This document shows, in pieces, positions 1,900 to 32,460 of a DNA stretch of 36,694 nucleotides; positions within the stretch are counted from its first letter, which is position 1, and each line of letters starts with the position of its first letter. Under the pieces are notes generated by a model that saw only the letters and a list, made by a program, of their open reading frames with translations, had not been told where the DNA came from and did no database searches. Position numbers and translations under genes: made by a program. Source of the DNA: Patescibacteria group bacterium. GTDB lineage: Bacteria > Patescibacteriota > Kazan-3B-28 > UBA10110. Where the stretch lies: NCBI GenBank assembly GCA_018817805.1, contig JAHITC010000020.1:1-36694 (forward strand), written 5' to 3'.

Positions 1900-1973
1900 T
1901 GGTGGGCCCAGAAGGGATCGAACCTTCGTCCCCAGCTTAAAAGGCTGTTGCTCTACCATTGAGCTATGGGCCC
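1900..1973 (-). tRNA. tRNA-Lys (anticodon UUU), CCA encoded
   Basis: The reverse complement is gggcccatagctcaatggtagagcaacagccttttaagctggggacgaaggttcgatcccttctgggcccacca. It folds as a cloverleaf with anticodon loop CTTTTAA, T-loop TTCGATC and a 3' ACCA. Confidence 0.9.
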
Positions 1974-10583: not shown

Positions 10584-10658
10584 TGGTAGCCTGTAGGGGA
10601 GTCGAACCCCTCTTTCCAGCTTGAAAAGCTAGCGTCCTAACCGATAGACGAACAGGCC
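10584..10658 (-). tRNA. tRNA-Glu (UUC), CCA encoded
   Basis: The reverse complement is ggcctgttcgtctatcggttaggacgctagcttttcaagctggaaagaggggttcgactcccctacaggctacca. Anticodon loop is TTTTCAA and the predicted terminal pair is G1.U72. Confidence 0.85.
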
Positions 10659-10661
10659 TTA

Positions 10662-10736
10662 TGGTGGGTCCAGAAGGACTCGAACCTTCAACCAACTGCT
10701 TAAGAGGCAGCTGCTCTACCATTGAGCTATGAACCC
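10662..10736 (-). tRNA. tRNA-Lys (CUU), CCA encoded
   Basis: The reverse complement is gggttcatagctcaatggtagagcagctgcctcttaagcagttggttgaaggttcgagtccttctggacccacca. Anticodon loop is CTCTTAA. Confidence 0.9.
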
Positions 10737-10814
10737 GTACTTTAGCATTTTATCAATATTATTAGATAGATGACGATATTTTATTAAATCTACTCGGTTC
10801 TGTCGATAAACTTA

Positions 10815-10889
10815 TGGTACCCCCGGTAGGAATCGAACCTACATCTTAAGCTCCGGAAGCTCACGTTCTATCCATTGAACTACGAGGGC
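10815..10889 (-). tRNA. tRNA-Arg (CCG), CCA encoded
   Basis: The reverse complement is gccctcgtagttcaatggatagaacgtgagcttccggagcttaagatgtaggttcgattcctaccgggggtacca. Anticodon loop is TTCCGGA and the predicted terminal pair is G1.U72. Confidence 0.85.
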
Positions 10890-10963
10890 ATAAATTAAAA
10901 ATTAAACCTTTTTGGTTTTGCTAAACTATCAGATATTTATCAAAACACTTTTTATTATGCGTG

Positions 10964-11039
10964 TGGGGTGGCCGATGGGATTCGAACCCACAACCGCCTG
11001 GACCACAACCAGGTGCTCTACCATTGAGCTACGGCCACC
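10964..11039 (-). tRNA. tRNA-His (GUG) with encoded G-1 and CCA
   Basis: The reverse complement is g-gtggccgtagctcaatggtagagcacctggttgtggtccaggcggttgtgggttcgaatcccatcggccac-c-cca. Anticodon loop is TTGTGGT and the extra 5' G sits opposite C73. Confidence 0.9.
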
Positions 11040-11044
11040 ATGCA

Positions 11045-11120
11045 TGGCGTCCTCGACAGGATTCGAACCTGTGGTCTACTGCTTAGAAGGCAGTTGCTTT
11101 ATCCACTAAGCTACGAGGAC
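11045..11120 (-). tRNA. tRNA-Arg (UCU), CCA encoded
   Basis: The reverse complement is gtcctcgtagcttagtggataaagcaactgccttctaagcagtagaccacaggttcgaatcctgtcgaggacgcca. Anticodon loop is CTTCTAA. It lies only 5 nt from tRNA-His. Confidence 0.9.
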
Positions 11121-11133
11121 AGATAATGTTAAC

Positions 11134-11161
11134 ATTCTAAACCTTTTCTAATATACCTCAA
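11134..11161 (-). promoter_or_regulatory. Sigma70-like promoter of the five-tRNA array
   Basis: Minus strand reads TTGAGG-16 nt-TAGAAT, ending 13 nt upstream of the tRNA-Arg(UCU) 5' end. It is overlapped by the perfect palindrome AATGTTAACATT (11125-11136). Confidence 0.45.
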
Positions 11162-11218
11162 AAACACCTCTGACCTAATTATATTCAGCCAGAGAACAAA
11201 CTAATTTAGATTATGAGC

Positions 11219-11578
11219 TTATGCGTTTAAGTATGCTTTGTGAGTGCTTAGCATCGAACGCGTTTCAGGAGGGGACATGATAAAAAACTGTAAAAATCCG
11301 AGTTCTGAGATAGTTAGTTTTTTGAAAATCTTTTTAGAATTACGATCTACCTTAGCTTCTTCCCAGCTGGGTTGAATTTCGTGTAAAAGTTCATGAATTA
11401 ATGTTACCACTCGATCGTTAATGTCTATGTGTTTGTTAATGAAAATCTTTAGGTCGTCTGGTAAAATATATCCTTTGGTTGCTCTAGCCAGCCCACCTGA
11501 TTTTTGGCGACTAAAATCACTGGTGAGAATCACCCGATAGCCAGAATGAAGTAATACGGATTTTAGTTTACTAAACAT
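11219..11578 (-). CDS. Small putative zinc metallopeptidase (HExxH), family undetermined
   Basis: 119-aa ORF with VTLIHELLHE preceded by a SprT/DUF45-like strand pattern (GGLARATKGYILPDDLKIFIN). There is no signal peptide and no Shine-Dalgarno. Confidence 0.5.
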   Translation of the reverse strand: MFSKLKSVLLHSGYRVILTSDFSRQKSGGLARATKGYILPDDLKIFINKHIDINDRVVTLIHELLHEIQPSWEEAKVDRNSKKIFKKLTISELGFLQFFIMSPPETRSMLSTHKAYLNA

Positions 11579-11625
11579 ATCTTTAGTTTTTGTTTTGTTT
11601 TGATAGCTTTGTCAGCTATTTCTCT

Positions 11626-11654
11626 ATTATATCATAAAAAACTGTAGCTGTCAA
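11626..11654 (-). promoter_or_regulatory. Perfect-consensus sigma70 promoter for the HExxH gene
   Basis: Minus strand reads TTGACA-17 nt-TATAAT. The leader contains a 6-bp hairpin ATAGCT/AGCTAT (11603-11619). Confidence 0.6.
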
Positions 11655-11700
11655 GGATAATCTGACGCGCAAAAAACACGCCTTGGCGGCAATAAAACTA

Positions 11701-11775
11701 TGGAGCGGGTAACGGGAATCGAACCCGTATCTTCAGCTTGGAAAGCTGACATAATAGCCTTTATACTATACCCGC
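11701..11775 (-). tRNA. tRNA-Gly (UCC), CCA encoded
   Basis: The reverse complement is gcgggtatagtataaaggctattatgtcagctttccaagctgaagatacgggttcgattcccgttacccgctcca. Anticodon loop is TTTCCAA. Confidence 0.9.
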
Positions 11776-17809: not shown

Positions 17810-18475
17810 TTATTCAGCGGGAGTTTCTTTGTCTTCAGATTCTTCTGTCTCAGACTTCTCTTCGGTCGCCTCCACTGAAGCAACTGCCTCGGCTTCCGAA
17901 ACTTCTTCAACTGCTTCTTCTTCGGCGGCAGGCTCAGTAACTACCATCACCGATTCTTCGCCATCATTTAGAATTTCGACACCACTTGGCACGCTAATGT
18001 CTTTAACAGTAATTGAATCGTTTAAATTAATTAATTGAGAAATATCAACTTCAATTTCTCGTGGCAAATCTTTAGGCAAACATTCGACTTCTATTTCATC
18101 TTTGTTTGTAATTAATATTCCATCTAAATCTTTAACAGCCAACGACTCGCCAATGAATTTTAATGGAATTGTTGTTCGTAACTTTTCATCACTCTTTACT
18201 TGGTAGAAATCTATATGCAGATATTTTTCGCTTACATGATCGAATTGAACATCTTTAATTAAAACTGAGTAGGGAGAAGGGTCACCTCCTACTTGTAAAT
18301 CGATAATAGTTGATTCGCTACCACCAGCACGATAAAGCTTATCAAAATCTGCAAATGGTACAGCAATATTCACTACTGGAACCCCGCGACCATACAAAAC
18401 AGCGGGGATTAAGTTGTTAGCTCTAACATCCCTAGGTATTGCCCCTTTTGCTCTTGTTTCTGCCGTTAACTCCAT
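17810..18475 (-). CDS. rplY: 50S ribosomal protein L25/Ctc (general stress protein form) with an acidic C-terminal tail
   Basis: The RAKGAIPRDVRANNLIPAVLYG start and the DVQFDHVSEKYLHIDFYQV motif are present. The C-terminal tail is rich in E, A and S. Confidence 0.85.
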   Translation of the reverse strand: MELTAETRAKGAIPRDVRANNLIPAVLYGRGVPVVNIAVPFADFDKLYRAGGSESTIIDLQVGGDPSPYSVLIKDVQFDHVSEKYLHIDFYQVKSDEKLRTTIPLKFIGESLAVKDLDGILITNKDEIEVECLPKDLPREIEVDISQLINLNDSITVKDISVPSGVEILNDGEESVMVVTEPAAEEEAVEEVSEAEAVASVEATEEKSETEESEDKETPAE

Positions 18476-18984: not shown

Positions 18985-20006
18985 GATGATTTATTCCGAG
19001 CCAAGCGAATAGCAGTCCTAGCCACTAAAATCATCAGAATAGCCACTATTGGCAACGCCAACAGCTTAGCCATTGAGCCAGACAATAAAGAAATAAGGCC
19101 AAATAAAGCCACGAATGTAAGAATAATTGTAGTCGCCCATGGATGATGAACCCCAGCAGCGATTAGTCGATGATGTAGATGCTCTCTGTCTGGAGAGAAA
19201 GGATGTTTTCCCGCCCGAAGGCGCCTAATAACAGCCCAAAGCAGATCTAAAAGAGGGAAACCTAATACTAAAACTGCAGTGGCTAACTTAGCTCCGTTAA
19301 TTATAGCTAATGCTCCAAGAAGAAACCCTAAAACATAACTACCAGAGTCACCCATGAAGATCTTGGCTGGATACCAGTTCCAACGCAAAAATCCAAGCAT
19401 AGTGCCAAATAAAATTACTGCCATTAAAGCCATCTCTGGTTGATGCACCATTGGCAGCCAACTCAAGAAAAATAGCACCATCGCGCCAATAATACTGGTG
19501 CCAGAAGCTAGCCCATCTAATCCATCTAACAAATTCATAGCATTAGTTATCACCATTAACCAAGCACCACTTAAAATTAAGTCCCAAGCAGGAGAGAAGA
19601 TGATGCTACCCCCTAGGGGATTGTTAATTTGGCCGATATGAATACCGAATTTCAAAGCTACTGCTACTGCAAGCAATTGAATAAGTATTTTTTGCCACGG
19701 CTTAAGACTAATTAAATCGTCTAATAGCCCCATCAAAAAAATGATACTTAAGGCAATTAGCAGGCCAATGCGCGGCTGATCTAAGGGCACAAACAGTAGA
19801 AAGCTGGTTATAAAGGTGATAAATATAGCCACTCCGCCTAATCTGGCCACTGGATAAGTGTGTAACTGATGATTAGTTAGTTTCGAGAATAACTTGTAAT
19901 GAGTAGAAAAATATTTTACTGCCCAAGTTAAAAGATATCCTAATAAAAAAGACAGGAGTAATGGTTGCCAGAACATCTGCCATGGAATGGGGGAGAGATT
20001 AAACAC
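18981..20006 (-). CDS. Polyprenyl-phosphate HexNAc-1-phosphate transferase (glycosyltransferase family 4, WecA/TagO-like rather than MraY)
   Basis: 341 aa and about 10 TM segments. Contains LLDDL, NAMNLLDGLDGLASG and a cytoplasmic PDREHLHHRL motif typical of WecA-type enzymes. It starts with GTG. Confidence 0.8.
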   Translation of the reverse strand: MFNLSPIPWQMFWQPLLLSFLLGYLLTWAVKYFSTHYKLFSKLTNHQLHTYPVARLGGVAIFITFITSFLLFVPLDQPRIGLLIALSIIFLMGLLDDLISLKPWQKILIQLLAVAVALKFGIHIGQINNPLGGSIIFSPAWDLILSGAWLMVITNAMNLLDGLDGLASGTSIIGAMVLFFLSWLPMVHQPEMALMAVILFGTMLGFLRWNWYPAKIFMGDSGSYVLGFLLGALAIINGAKLATAVLVLGFPLLDLLWAVIRRLRAGKHPFSPDREHLHHRLIAAGVHHPWATTIILTFVALFGLISLLSGSMAKLLALPIVAILMILVARTAIRLARNKSS

Positions 20007-20331
20007 CTTGATTTTGACTTAATTGTATAATGCGATCGAAATTATCTTCTAGAGCAGCTACATTGCGTTTAGTGGTGGAGCATTTTAAGCATTTGTGGTT
20101 TAAATAGAATTCGCCATGCTGATACTCAACTCCAGTTGGAGCCATTAGCCCTTTGCAATTATTAGCTCTATCTCCAGGCACATCTTTATCTACATGTTTA
20201 CTGTGCAAACAAAAAGGACAGTGATTGGTATAACCATCGCCAACTACCTTTTGACCACAACTATCGCAGGCAAAATCTTCTTTATTGCGAATAAAATTCT
20301 TTCTGTCCATTGGTTTTGACGATGTAACCAT
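19999..20331 (-). CDS. RNHCP-domain zinc-binding protein
   Basis: FACDSCGQKVVGDGYTNHCPFCLHSKHVD matches the RNHCP-domain signature, and there is a second CxxC (KCLKC). The start is either ATG 20331 or ATG 20310. It overlaps both neighbouring genes. Confidence 0.65.
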   Translation of the reverse strand: MVTSSKPMDRKNFIRNKEDFACDSCGQKVVGDGYTNHCPFCLHSKHVDKDVPGDRANNCKGLMAPTGVEYQHGEFYLNHKCLKCSTTKRNVAALEDNFDRIIQLSQNQGV

Positions 20332-26245: not shown

Positions 26246-28372
26246 GTGCTATATACTACAATTATGGAAACTTTCTTAAATGAACTAAATGCTGCGCAGA
26301 AAGAAGCCGTTACTGCGGGGGATGGACCAGTATTGATTTTAGCTGGGGCAGGTAGTGGCAAGACCAAAACTTTAACCGCACGCATTGTTTATCTTATTAA
26401 AGAAAAGCAGGTACGACCAAAAGAGATCTTGGCAGTTACCTTCACTAATAAAGCAGCTGGCGAGATTAAGACCCGCATTAAGCAACTTCTTCGTCTTCGA
26501 TCTGAAGCAGGTTTTAATATTGGGACATTCCATTCTCTTTGTACTCGTATCCTCCGAGCAGAAGCTGAGCATTTAGACAGAACTCGTTCCTTTAGTATCT
26601 TGGATACTGATGAACAGCTCACCGCTGTCAAACAAGTAATGCACACTCTTAGTATTGATACCCAACGGTATGCTCCTGGTGCTATTCTAAATTTCATTTC
26701 TTCTGCTAAAAACGAATTGATTGAAGCGGACGAATATCAGAGAACTGCTCATGGTAATTTCCCCAATTTAGTAGCTAAGGTTTATCCGCTCTACCAAAAG
26801 ACTTTACTAAAGAATAACAGCTACGACTTTGACGACTTATTACTTGAAACTGTGAAGCTGTTTGGCCAAGCCCCAGCAGTTTTAGAAAAGTACCAGAAAC
26901 TATTTAAATACATTTTAGTAGACGAGTACCAAGACACTAACTCTGCGCAATATCAACTAACTAATTTATTATCTAAATCTCACCGTAACTTATTTGTAGT
27001 CGGCGACGATTGGCAGTCGATCTATTCTTGGCGAGGGGCTAATTACCGTAATATTCTTGAGTTTAACGAGGACTACCCCAAAGCTAAGGTAATTAAACTC
27101 GAAGAAAATTATCGCTCTACTCAAACCATCTTGGATGCAGGTGAAGCTGTTATTAAAGCTAACCGATTCAGAAGCGACAAGAAACTATGGACTAAAAAAG
27201 GAGAAGGGGAGTTAGTCGCTATCTGTCCAGTAATTAACGAGCTCTACGAAGGTAGTTTTATCGCCAGAGAAATTATGCATAAACAGGCAAATGAAAAGAT
27301 TAGCTTAAACAACTTTGTTGTGTTGTATCGCACTAATGCACAATCTAGGGCATTAGAAGAATCATTCATACGACAAAATCTACCTTATCGCATTGTGGGC
27401 GGCACTCGTTTCTACGATCGTAGAGAAATTAAAGATATCTTGGCATATTTAAAAGTTATAGCCAACCCAAACGACGAACTTAGTTTAAAAAGAATTATTA
27501 ATGTTCCCGCTCGCGGTATTGGCGCCAAAACATGGGAAATTATTCAGAAGTTTTCAGAAGAACAAGACAAACCAACCAGCTTAGTGCTCAACTTAATGCC
27601 AGTGAGTGAAAAAGTTAAAAAAACTCTAGTCAAACTTAACGCAACTTTTACTAAAGCTAGGGGTTGGCAAAAAAACTTAAGTAGTTTATTCGATTTTGTA
27701 TTAAGCGAAACTGGTTATCTCACTTTCCTAAACGACCGTACCATCGAAGGAGAAACTCGAATCGAAAACGTCAAAGAATTAAAAAGCGTTATCGAAAAAA
27801 ACGACGCTCTCGAAATTGGGATTGCTCTAACAACCTTTTTAGAAGAAGTGAGTTTAATCCAAGACTTAGATAACTATGAAGCCAGCGAAGAAGCAGTTAC
27901 TTTGATGACAATGCATGCTGCTAAAGGGCTTGAGTTTAATTATGTTTTTATTGCTGGTATGGAAGAAAATGTTTTTCCTCATTCTAGGAGCATCCTCGAC
28001 GAAACAGAGTTAGAAGAAGAGCGACGGCTGTGCTACGTCGGCATCACCCGAGCTAAACACAGAATCTATTTGGTGTACGCCCAACAACGAACTTTATATG
28101 GCAATACTAGTTACAATTTGCCATCTAGGTTTATTGAAGAAATTCCAGAACATCTTACAGAAGAACTTCATTATGCTTCGGGGCCTAGCTCGCCGATGCG
28201 CAACGAAAAGACTCGACCCAAATTAAAATTACAAGCTGGCGACAAAATAGAACACACTCATTTTGGTAAGGGAGTAGTAATCGAACTCAACCAGGATGAG
28301 GTAGTAGCTAGTTTTCACACATTAGGTATTAAAAGATTATCTGCAAGTTTAGCCCCTATCAAAAAAATATAA
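26246..28372 (+). CDS. pcrA: ATP-dependent DNA helicase PcrA/UvrD (superfamily 1A)
   Basis: AGAGSGKTKTL (Walker A), VDEYQDTN, GDDWQSIYSWRGA, TMHAAKGLEF and VGITRAK. The start is GTG 26246 (GGAAGGGGG 5 nt upstream) or ATG 26264. Confidence 0.92.
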   Translation: MLYTTIMETFLNELNAAQKEAVTAGDGPVLILAGAGSGKTKTLTARIVYLIKEKQVRPKEILAVTFTNKAAGEIKTRIKQLLRLRSEAGFNIGTFHSLCTRILRAEAEHLDRTRSFSILDTDEQLTAVKQVMHTLSIDTQRYAPGAILNFISSAKNELIEADEYQRTAHGNFPNLVAKVYPLYQKTLLKNNSYDFDDLLLETVKLFGQAPAVLEKYQKLFKYILVDEYQDTNSAQYQLTNLLSKSHRNLFVVGDDWQSIYSWRGANYRNILEFNEDYPKAKVIKLEENYRSTQTILDAGEAVIKANRFRSDKKLWTKKGEGELVAICPVINELYEGSFIAREIMHKQANEKISLNNFVVLYRTNAQSRALEESFIRQNLPYRIVGGTRFYDRREIKDILAYLKVIANPNDELSLKRIINVPARGIGAKTWEIIQKFSEEQDKPTSLVLNLMPVSEKVKKTLVKLNATFTKARGWQKNLSSLFDFVLSETGYLTFLNDRTIEGETRIENVKELKSVIEKNDALEIGIALTTFLEEVSLIQDLDNYEASEEAVTLMTMHAAKGLEFNYVFIAGMEENVFPHSRSILDETELEEERRLCYVGITRAKHRIYLVYAQQRTLYGNTSYNLPSRFIEEIPEHLTEELHYASGPSSPMRNEKTRPKLKLQAGDKIEHTHFGKGVVIELNQDEVVASFHTLGIKRLSASLAPIKKI

Positions 28373-31743: not shown

Positions 31744-31956
31744 ATGGACAAAGCAAAGTTAAATAAGAAGTTTCTTAAACTTAAGTCGATGATTAGTCGA
31801 CGTAAGCCATTTATTATTAAGATGCCGGAAGAAAGAGACGACAGCATTCACTGGTTGTTTTGGCTATTATTAATTTTAGTGTTACTTTTCTTAATTAGTA
31901 CGATTGTTATAAGCTGGTCTAGTTCTTCAGGGCTACTTTCATACATGAATCAATAA
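31744..31956 (+). CDS. Small single-TM protein, unknown function
   Basis: 70-aa ORF with a basic N-terminus and one TM segment (WLFWLLLILVLLFLISTIVISW). The only support is the ORF itself and its operon position. Confidence 0.35.
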   Translation: MDKAKLNKKFLKLKSMISRRKPFIIKMPEERDDSIHWLFWLLLILVLLFLISTIVISWSSSSGLLSYMNQ

Positions 31957-31988
31957 AAAAACCGCATTCAGTTTTTAATTGAATGCGG
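31955..31988 (-). terminator. Strong intrinsic terminator for the minus-strand GC-rich unit. The hairpin also abuts the end of the plus-strand rsmI operon.
   Basis: A 9-bp stem CCGCATTCA/TGAATGCGG (31962-31970/31980-31988) has a 9-nt loop. On the minus strand it is followed by U7 (A7 at 31955-31961). Confidence 0.75.
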
Positions 31989-32000
31989 CACGATTAACCT

Positions 32001-32375
32001 CTATTGTTTTTTAGCAGTTACCTGCTCTACCCATGCTGGGTAACTGCCCCTGACTGCCCTTAAGTAAGCAAAACATTGTTTTTTATGTTTTGCTTGGAGT
32101 AGGCAATATCTGCCGACGATGGAGACGAGACCGCCATCGTTGGTCACGCTGCTTCCAAAGAACGCGACAAAGTATGGGCCTTTTTTGCCACCTTGCGGGG
32201 GGTCTACAACCTTCCTCGAGGGATACAGCGACCTGAACGCTGAGTGGATAGCGGCATCTCGGCGCAAAGACCCATGAACCTCTATCTCGTGCTTAGAAGG
32301 ATAGTATCCCTCATCTACACACCACCCCGACTCCCAGAGCTTCACCAACCATTTGGTTGTTGTGGTAATCGGCAA
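32001..32375 (-). CDS. Orphan 124-aa ORF in a GC-rich, hairpin-dense island. Coding status is uncertain and a structured RNA is the alternative.
   Basis: TTG start 32375..32373 lies 9 nt after GGAGG (32389..32385), and the stop is TAG 32003..32001. I recognise no motif in MPITTTTKWLVKLWESGWCVDEGYY... GC3 is 67/124 by hand count, which is atypical for this window. Confidence 0.4.
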   Translation of the reverse strand: MPITTTTKWLVKLWESGWCVDEGYYPSKHEIEVHGSLRRDAAIHSAFRSLYPSRKVVDPPQGGKKGPYFVAFFGSSVTNDGGLVSIVGRYCLLQAKHKKQCFAYLRAVRGSYPAWVEQVTAKKQ

Positions 32376-32431
32376 TCATCATCACCTCCAGCCCTCTTGT
32401 CTGAGTAATTTTAATTTGCAAAATCACCCTC

Positions 32432-32460
32432 AAAATAGCATGGTTTACAGGAGGTGTCAA
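32432..32460 (-). promoter_or_regulatory. Sigma70-like promoter of the GC-rich unit
   Basis: Minus strand reads TTGACA-17 nt-TATTTT. It sits back-to-back with the L,D-transpeptidase promoter, 10 nt separating the two -35 boxes. Confidence 0.45.

Follow-up and report, generated by a model that had tools for sequence, protein, structure and literature searches.

Several heavily structured RNAs that also encode a protein have been described, among them SgrS/SgrT, RNAIII/hld, the cspA mRNA, type I toxin mRNAs, and the genomes of single-stranded RNA phages. These RNAs have defined, conserved structures and known partners, and their open reading frames (ORFs) are mostly very short. Here we describe a complete transcription unit on the minus strand (positions 32460..31955) of a 36,694-nucleotide stretch of DNA from a Patescibacteria group bacterium (contig JAHITC010000020.1), the whole of which is referred to below as the window. 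Like the systems named above, the unit stands alone with its own promoter and terminator, and structure in and around its ORF appears to have been selected. It differs from them in that its ORF takes up the whole transcript and codes for a 124-residue protein predicted to be folded and soluble, and in that its stems are numerous, local, and largely turning over between relatives. The unit is a genuine gene whose product is a small basic protein of 124 residues, and we consider it highly probable that it encodes a protein of a new family and that its excess of hairpins is real. A sequence-only reading of the locus had proposed an orphan gene, an undescribed large structured RNA, or both; the first proposal was borne out, the second was contradicted, and of the third there remains a protein gene, not a stand-alone RNA, whose mRNA is unusually structured.

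Evidence for coding came from comparisons with homologous loci in other genomes (designated below by L numbers). The ORF aligns with its L001 homologue across all 124 codons without a gap at 63% nucleotide identity, and the differences at codon positions 1, 2, and 3 number 39, 23, and 75, respectively. In the same codon alignment, 45 codons differ solely by synonymous change, and every other frame contains 3 to 9 stops. Ratios of nonsynonymous to synonymous substitution rates (dN/dS) in four closer pairs were 0.13 (L009-L012), 0.18 (L001-L018), and 0.25 to 0.30 (L008/L015/L016). Retention of the frame, the preponderance of third-position differences, and dN/dS values of 0.13 to 0.30 thus indicate purifying selection on a coding sequence. 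Protein homologues reach down to 26% identity, with insertions and deletions in loops. The orphan gene is therefore strongly supported by codon-periodic divergence and low dN/dS, together with a conserved TTG start and Shine-Dalgarno sequence, a family of homologues, and a confidently predicted fold, all of which are detailed below.

The unit is monocistronic, with a private promoter, one ORF, and a private terminator. A sigma-70-type promoter (32460..32432, minus strand) combines a -35 box TTGACA (32460..32455), a 17-nt spacer, and a TG-extended -10 box TATTTT (32437..32432) and scores 10/12. The 5' untranslated region (UTR; 32431..32390, minus strand) would be about 40 to 50 nt long, given a transcription start predicted from the promoter. 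A GGAGG Shine-Dalgarno sequence (within GGAGGTGATG; 32389..32385, minus strand) lies 9 nt ahead of the TTG start codon at 32375, which is immediately preceded by an in-frame TGA, and the coding sequence (CDS; 32375..32001, minus strand) runs for 124 codons to a TAG stop at 32003..32001. An intrinsic terminator (31988..31955, minus strand) with a 9-bp stem (CCGCAUUCA/UGAAUGCGG; 12 bp with one mismatch) followed by U7 closes the unit; a simple terminator scan of the window did not report it. The sequence-only reading had placed the promoter, Shine-Dalgarno sequence, ORF, and terminator exactly here.

These signals are shared among relatives. The promoter is almost unchanged in L001, L018, and L002, the TTG start and GGAGGTGATG are kept in all four syntenic genomes, and the terminator is kept in L001, L018, and L002 with one compensatory change from C-G to U-A. 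Across the family, analyses at the nucleotide level covered 12 genes (one member, P0005, came without DNA). All of these members have a promoter with a TTGAC(A/T) -35 box and a -10 box; GGAGGTG precedes 12/12 of the genes, and each gene finishes in a GC-rich terminator hairpin followed by a T-run. This set of signals suggests a design for strong, independent expression. The database version of one family protein, P0002 (L002 4359-4907), begins at an internal ATG that is evidently too far downstream, as a conserved Shine-Dalgarno sequence and TTG 48 nt upstream of this ATG give an N terminus (MALSTTTSRQLLWEVKMWVSGWC...) like those of the other syntenic proteins.

Within the 5' UTR, a block with the sequence TTTTGCAAATT is common to the four syntenic genomes, and in the alignment its conservation exceeds that of the CDS. 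The block contains an 8-bp palindrome, TTTGCAAA (32422..32415, minus strand), that closely follows the -10 box. Only the window copy has 15 nt inserted (32407..32393) between the block and the Shine-Dalgarno sequence. In several members of other subfamilies (L003, L004, L009, L012, and L015), ATCTTGTAC or a close variant takes the place of the block. The TTTGCAAA/TTTTGCAAATT and ATCTTGTAC sites could be operators. Occlusion of the Shine-Dalgarno sequence by a conserved 5'-UTR hairpin was considered and rejected, as the consensus energy is just -2.8 kcal/mol.

The protein has few relatives. A search of 5.8 billion protein clusters returned a sole match, P0001, which at 62% identity is also the nearest relative, and an exhaustive HMMER search found 7 proteins with an E value of <1e-3 among 1.84 billion representatives. 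With later searches the family grew to about 13 members with 26 to 62% identity among roughly 15 billion proteins, and a further large protein search with a 12-sequence profile yielded no additional members. A GTDB genome scan with a 2-sequence alignment found no relative, and genome scans with subfamily alignments found one locus each. One member comes from an NCBI assembly named "MAG: Patescibacteria group bacterium RA.bin10." Judged from these searches, this is a very rare, apparently undescribed family of Patescibacteria-type genomes. Its conserved columns include W14, A42/I43/A46, and F69/F72, and a C-terminal P-A-W-V-E motif recurs among members. No match to the family was found in Pfam or NCBIfam apart from weak zinc-ribbon matches in ribbon-bearing members, and no member belonged to a phage or defense family (best E values, 0.008 in PHROGs and 0.057 in PADLOC). 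A sequence profile search of the PDB returned nothing at an E value of ≤10.

The weak zinc-ribbon matches belong to the nearest relatives. P0001, P0002, and the L018 ORF extend in frame into a C-terminal CxxC...CxxC zinc ribbon, and the ribbons of P0001 and P0002 are weakly matched by Pfam models of the DZR or Zn_Ribbon_1 type (E values, 1e-3 to 4e-3). Relative to L001 and L018, the window copy lacks about 115 nt encoding the ribbon, and the junction makes the TAG stop, so that the ORF ends before either CxxC pair. Past this stop, an out-of-frame relic of the last eight ribbon codons (32001..31975, minus strand; GAGGTTAATCGTGCCGCATTCAATTAA) would read EVNRAAFN*, compared with the EINHSAFN* that ends P0001. 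The relic and the 115-nt gap together indicate that the window copy lost its ribbon by deletion. Likeness to zinc-ribbon domains is thus limited to these nearest relatives and the relic; the window protein has no ribbon, and nine other members, which never had one there, naturally terminate where the window core does. The window protein retains the core common to all members.

AlphaFold2 (AF2) produced a confident model of the window protein (mean predicted local distance difference test [pLDDT], 86.9; predicted template modeling score [pTM], 0.78), and a second, independently modeled member that is about 33% identical gave a model of matching topology (pLDDT, 86.3), from inputs of only 8 and 12 sequences. 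The predicted topology is β-hairpin, helix, β-hairpin, helix, and final strand. Duplication as the origin of the two β-hairpin-plus-helix halves was rejected at the sequence level (hhalign probability, 0.2%). The product is of the soluble type (grand average of hydropathy [GRAVY], -0.34) and basic, with an isoelectric point (pI) of 9.6, and the cores of all 13 members have pI values of 9.0 to 11.3.

Structure searches with these models gave weak leads and no assignment. The best structural matches to the window model, from a Foldseek search of BFVD, were three phage DUF4494 (PF14902) proteins (E values, 5e-5 to 2e-4; probability, 1.0), which are similar in size (143 to 155 aa) and aligned over nearly the full length (134 to 138 columns). 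They differ in that template modeling (TM) scores were 0.35 to 0.42, root mean square deviations (rmsd) were 13 to 16 Å, and sequence identity was 8 to 10%, and hmmscan of 8 family members did not match PF14902 at an E value of ≤1. DUF4494 proteins occur in phages and Bacteroidota, and a literature search on this domain found no paper. Against the PDB, both models retrieved the same top chains at insignificant levels (E values, 0.07 to 1; TM scores, 0.24 to 0.31; rmsd, about 16 Å). From the chain naming and the target lengths of 172 to 180 aa, we take these chains to be the eukaryotic ribosomal protein eL20 (RPL18A)/archaeal LX fold. The studied protein is likewise small and basic with two α/β units; it differs in that the structural match is insignificant and that Pfam gives no eL20/LX match to the family. 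We treat the eL20 and DUF4494 resemblances as leads and not as assignments. Taken with the basic charge and the zinc-ribbon variants, this weak fold likeness tentatively suggests a nucleic-acid-binding protein, a role that we regard as possible and somewhat doubtful; if so, the protein is possibly RNA or ribosome associated.

The second property of the gene is its density of stem-loops. Hairpin I4 (32143..32113, minus strand; codons N79-G88) is a 10-bp stem with one A.C mismatch, and all three syntenic homologues retain it, with G-C pairs turned into G.U and in one case into U.G. Hairpin I2 (32095..32066, minus strand; codons Q94-Y104) is a perfect 11-bp stem with an 8-nt loop; it is kept in L001 and L018 and broken in L002, and at two of its pairs, both at third codon positions, the window and L018 show covariation (A-U to G-C). 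Hairpin I3 (32047..32014, minus strand; codons S111-A121) is a perfect 9-bp stem with a 16-nt loop, and its 3' arm pairs in L001 and L018 with another 5' arm, 12 nt further upstream. A long-range pair, I5 (32312..32218, minus strand), joins GAGGGAUAC (32312..32304) with GUAUCCCUC (32226..32218) in 9 perfect bp and is not complementary in L001. The 5' arm of I5 can alternatively form a local 7-bp hairpin with AUCCUUC (32312..32296), which is present in the minimum free energy (MFE) structure, and a local hairpin over Glu-Gly/Pro-Ser is seen again in L001 and L004.

These four inverted repeats and a small 5' hairpin are exactly where the sequence-only reading had described them, and the stem density that it called unusual proved to be so. 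The window CDS contains three inverted repeats (perfect pairing, ≥9 bp, within 100 nt), compared with 0.077 expected from dinucleotide shuffles (0/2,000 reached three) and 0.18 expected from shuffles preserving the protein and codon usage (0/1,000 reached three), and it is the sole place in the 36.7-kb window with at least three such repeats per 375 nt. Folding energies also fall below those of dinucleotide shuffles, with z scores of -3.1 for the transcript, -3.6 for the opposite strand, and -2.35 for the CDS. For comparison, 52 control CDS segments had z scores of -2.3 to +1.4 (-0.2 ± 0.9), with means of -0.08 to -0.22 for 36 of them.

The excess extends to most of the family. Against dinucleotide shuffles, CDS folding z scores were -7.25 for L001, -6.1 for L018, -1.57 for L002 (-2.0 with the corrected start), +0.21 for L003, -7.48 for L004, -2.15 for L005, -4.95 for L008, -5.65 for L009, -5.51 for L012, -4.07 for L015, and -2.30 for L016. 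With protein and codon usage fixed, seven members still had z scores of -3 to -7 (lowest, -7.1). Against the same synonymous shuffles, the family as a whole carries 27 perfect stems of at least 8 bp (9.0 expected) and 12 of at least 9 bp (2.7 expected), a 3- to 4.4-fold enrichment. As a matter of statistics, then, codon choice in this family favors many local stem-loops in the mRNA or DNA beyond what coding constraint demands. High-expression codon bias was examined as a cause of the GC content and structure and found no support, as the bL25 ribosomal protein gene in the same window has a GC content of 0.37 and a z score of -0.2.

Conservation of the pairs themselves is another matter. Consensus folds of subfamilies beat column shuffles with z scores of -3.9, -7.4, and -4.3, values that are partly inflated by shared ancestry. 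The structure conservation index (SCI) ranged from 0.31 to 0.69 within subfamilies and was 0.05 across all 12 sequences. At gathering score, Rfam 15 matched nothing in the region, a permissive search (E value, ≤10) gave three chance-level matches (E values, ≥1.6) far below gathering scores, and the 11 homologous loci gave no Rfam match. ARAGORN found no transfer-messenger RNA (tmRNA) in the region. Signatures of RNase P, signal recognition particle RNA, and tmRNA (GAGGAAG..., GGAAGCAGC, and a GNRA loop) had been sought by eye, and these candidates were dropped on the negative Rfam and ARAGORN results. A type I toxin mRNA, which typically has an ORF of under about 60 aa, a hydrophobic membrane peptide as its product, and an overlapping antisense RNA, was also rejected, given the 124-aa length, GRAVY value, and predicted α/β fold of the product; a promoter and terminator scan showed no antisense promoter/terminator pair within the unit.

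How might such a gene work? The near-consensus promoter, perfect Shine-Dalgarno sequence, and TTG start would drive production of the 124-residue basic protein, and the intrinsic terminator would close the unit. The stem-loops may be selected for overall foldedness, for example, because they lengthen the half-life of the mRNA or pace or regulate its translation. Because most pairs turn over between relatives, selection of this kind would act on foldedness and not on one specific RNA architecture. We rate selection on mRNA foldedness as a serious possibility of somewhat less than even likelihood. The protein may be an abundant nucleic-acid-binding protein, perhaps RNA or ribosome associated, that may bind its own hairpin-rich message; for such a self-recognizing pair, selection would keep "many hairpins" and not one particular fold. 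MRNA stability, translational control, self-binding, and a mutational by-product are all candidate reasons for the accumulation of hairpins.

Several observations weigh against the picture of a conserved gene with selected stems. L002 and L003 have no folding excess, and the window CDS itself is only modestly more folded than synonymous shuffles (z score, -1.14; 12/80 as good). The pairs are poorly conserved (SCI, 0.31 to 0.43 in 4- and 5-sequence sets): RNAalifold on five subfamily 2 genes kept -57 kcal/mol out of about -136 kcal/mol (SCI, 0.42), and its covariation term was unfavorable (+4.8); where two sequences share about 80% identity, roughly half of their altered base pairs no longer form and double compensatory changes are few, about as neutral change would give. 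The two strands, sense and antisense, are about equal in folding (CDS z scores of -2.35 and -3.5 for the window and -7.25 and -5.5 for L001, with similar MFE values for L015 and L016), which leaves room for a DNA-level or mutational origin of the stems. As regards the protein, the zinc ribbon of the window copy has been deleted, the PDB fold matches are insignificant (E values, ≥0.07; TM scores, ≤0.3), and the DUF4494 match is without sequence support. The window protein also evolves faster than its neighbor (dN relative to L018, 0.32, versus 0.14 for RsmI), and relaxed constraint in the window lineage is possible.

Among the alternatives, one is that the mRNA doubles as a functional structured RNA, such as a scaffold or decoy, or as an array of hairpins to which its own basic protein binds specifically for autoregulation or packaging. 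The survival of the excess under synonymous shuffling in 7 to 8 of 12 members is what such a role would predict, as are the retention of I2 and I4 in the syntenic subfamily with third-position covariation, the subfamily consensus-fold z scores (-3.9 to -7.4), the basic protein, and a low synonymous rate, since dS for the studied gene in subfamily 2 is 0.72, compared with 1.05 to saturation for its neighbors. The lack of any family-wide structure, the roughly neutral retention of changed pairs, the absence of an Rfam relative, and a window fold no better than synonymous shuffles argue the other way, and we consider a bifunctional RNA unlikely. The low dS was seen in the comparison of L009 (547-921) with L012 (581-955), where Gmad2 has a dS of 2.4, the upstream gene has a dS of 1.05, and the TspO and sigma-70 genes are saturated; the adjacent sigma-70 genes are just 30% identical, which is oddly divergent for such close neighbors.

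Alternatively, the stems could be a by-product of mutation or a DNA-level property, arising, for instance, where a gene under very high transcription undergoes template-switch or quasi-palindrome mutagenesis or where the DNA is prone to cruciforms. The similar folding of the two strands fits this idea, as do the rapid turnover of stems, whose partners shift register between orthologues, and the many stems that are perfect Watson-Crick repeats. However, several conserved L001 stems need 3 to 5 G.U pairs, which are workable on the sense strand alone, and the excess is limited to the studied family and absent from the 52 control segments, which include a ribosomal protein gene. We know of no mutational mechanism that is aimed at a single gene across diverged genomes, and we judge this origin to be as unlikely as a second function of the RNA.

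A more specific version of the self-binding idea, in which a lineage-specific RNA-binding protein of Patescibacteria (for example, ribosome associated, with an eL20/LX-like fold) takes its own mRNA as a ligand for autoregulation or RNA protection, seems to us decidedly unlikely as a complete account.

It is also improbable that the window copy is a decaying remnant drifting toward a pseudogene after the ribbon deletion. The out-of-frame relic past the stop codon, a dN relative to orthologues above that of RsmI, and structure weaker than that in L001 and L018 would all suit decay; against it, the 124-codon core is intact, the regulatory signals are intact and conserved, nine members without a ribbon have this same natural end point, and divergence is still strongly codon periodic.

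Horizontal acquisition of the gene had been argued in the sequence-only reading from the ORF, the Shine-Dalgarno sequence, and foreign codon usage. The unusual composition was confirmed: the ORF has a GC content of 0.50, compared with 0.40 for the whole window, and a third-position GC content (GC3) of 0.54, compared with 0.32 to 0.38 in six neighboring genes, with third positions carrying most of the excess. The extreme rarity of the family would also suit a recent import. Gene order in three related genomes contradicts it. The window reads UvrD/PcrA, a DPBB protein, KsgA, Nramp, RsmI, a 70-aa protein, the studied gene on the opposite strand, YkuD, RecA, YajQ, and FtsK; the neighbors of the studied gene are housekeeping genes. 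L002 reproduces this order on both sides (YajQ, RecA, YkuD, studied gene, 70-aa protein, RsmI, Nramp, and KsgA), L018 retains the downstream part (70-aa protein, RsmI, and Nramp), and L001 retains the divergent YkuD neighbor. The gene has thus held its position between YkuD and the RsmI operon, its divergence from orthologues is comparable with that of its neighbors, and the rise in GC3 is not universal, with the L018 orthologue at 0.50 and the L001 and L002 orthologues near the GC content of their own contigs (a comparison made for these two). Synteny in L001, L002, and L018 rules out a recent foreign origin of the window copy, and we find it scarcely credible as the source of the codon usage anomaly. 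In the wider family, contexts vary among subfamilies (YkuD/RsmI region, dcw cluster/Sua5, sigma-70/TspO, and TruB), and wherever both neighbors are visible, the family gene lies alone on the strand opposite to them.

The idea that the locus is a noncoding structured RNA gene with a fortuitous ORF draws on the GC bump, the dense stems, the private promoter and terminator, and the transcript z score of -3.1, and it is effectively refuted by codon-periodic divergence and low dN/dS in a gapless 124-codon frame, by remote protein homologues with loop indels, by confident AF2 models, by the in-frame zinc ribbon of relatives, by the conserved Shine-Dalgarno sequence and start, and, on the RNA side, by the lack of an Rfam match, of a family-wide fold (SCI, 0.05), of favorable covariation (+4.8), and of more than neutral retention of changed pairs.

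The surroundings of the gene offered further observations. A 70-aa ORF (31744-31956, plus strand) directly after RsmI has a hydrophobic stretch, LFWLLLILVLLFLISTIVI, and likely encodes a membrane protein, as this stretch suggests. It is conserved in L002 (4932-5147) and L018 (1190-1402) with 72 to 77% identity and dN/dS values of 0.09 to 0.16, and on this evidence it is a real small gene; its product has no significant Pfam match, and the ORF stops at the foot of the studied gene's terminator. The UvrD/PcrA protein of L002 (8628-11822) is 1,064 aa long with an intein (Pfam Intein_splicing), and the 708-aa window orthologue (26246-28372, plus strand) has no intein match. Elsewhere in the window, six tRNA genes (Glu, Lys, Arg, His, Arg, and Gly) lie within 1.2 kb (10584-11775, minus strand) and a separate tRNA-Lys gene lies at 1900-1973 (minus strand), all seven being found by both ARAGORN and Rfam. 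A 110-aa ORF (19999-20331, minus strand) matches the RNHCP domain (PF12647; E value, 4e-25), the bL25/TL5 ribosomal protein gene is at 17810-18475 (minus strand), and RuvA, RuvC, and RuvX are also encoded in the window.

Overall, the question posed by this locus is settled in favor of a gene, which is neither a new large RNA nor foreign DNA. Its product represents a new protein family with a confidently predicted fold and no match to a solved structure or a curated family, and as a considerable share of candidate phyla radiation proteomes is uncharacterized, the family is a reasonable target for structural and ribosome-profiling work. Most members are far more self-complementary than control genes, also with protein and codon usage kept fixed, yet the pairs themselves turn over. 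This pattern makes the family a compact natural test case for distinguishing selection on the foldedness of an mRNA from selection on a specific structure.

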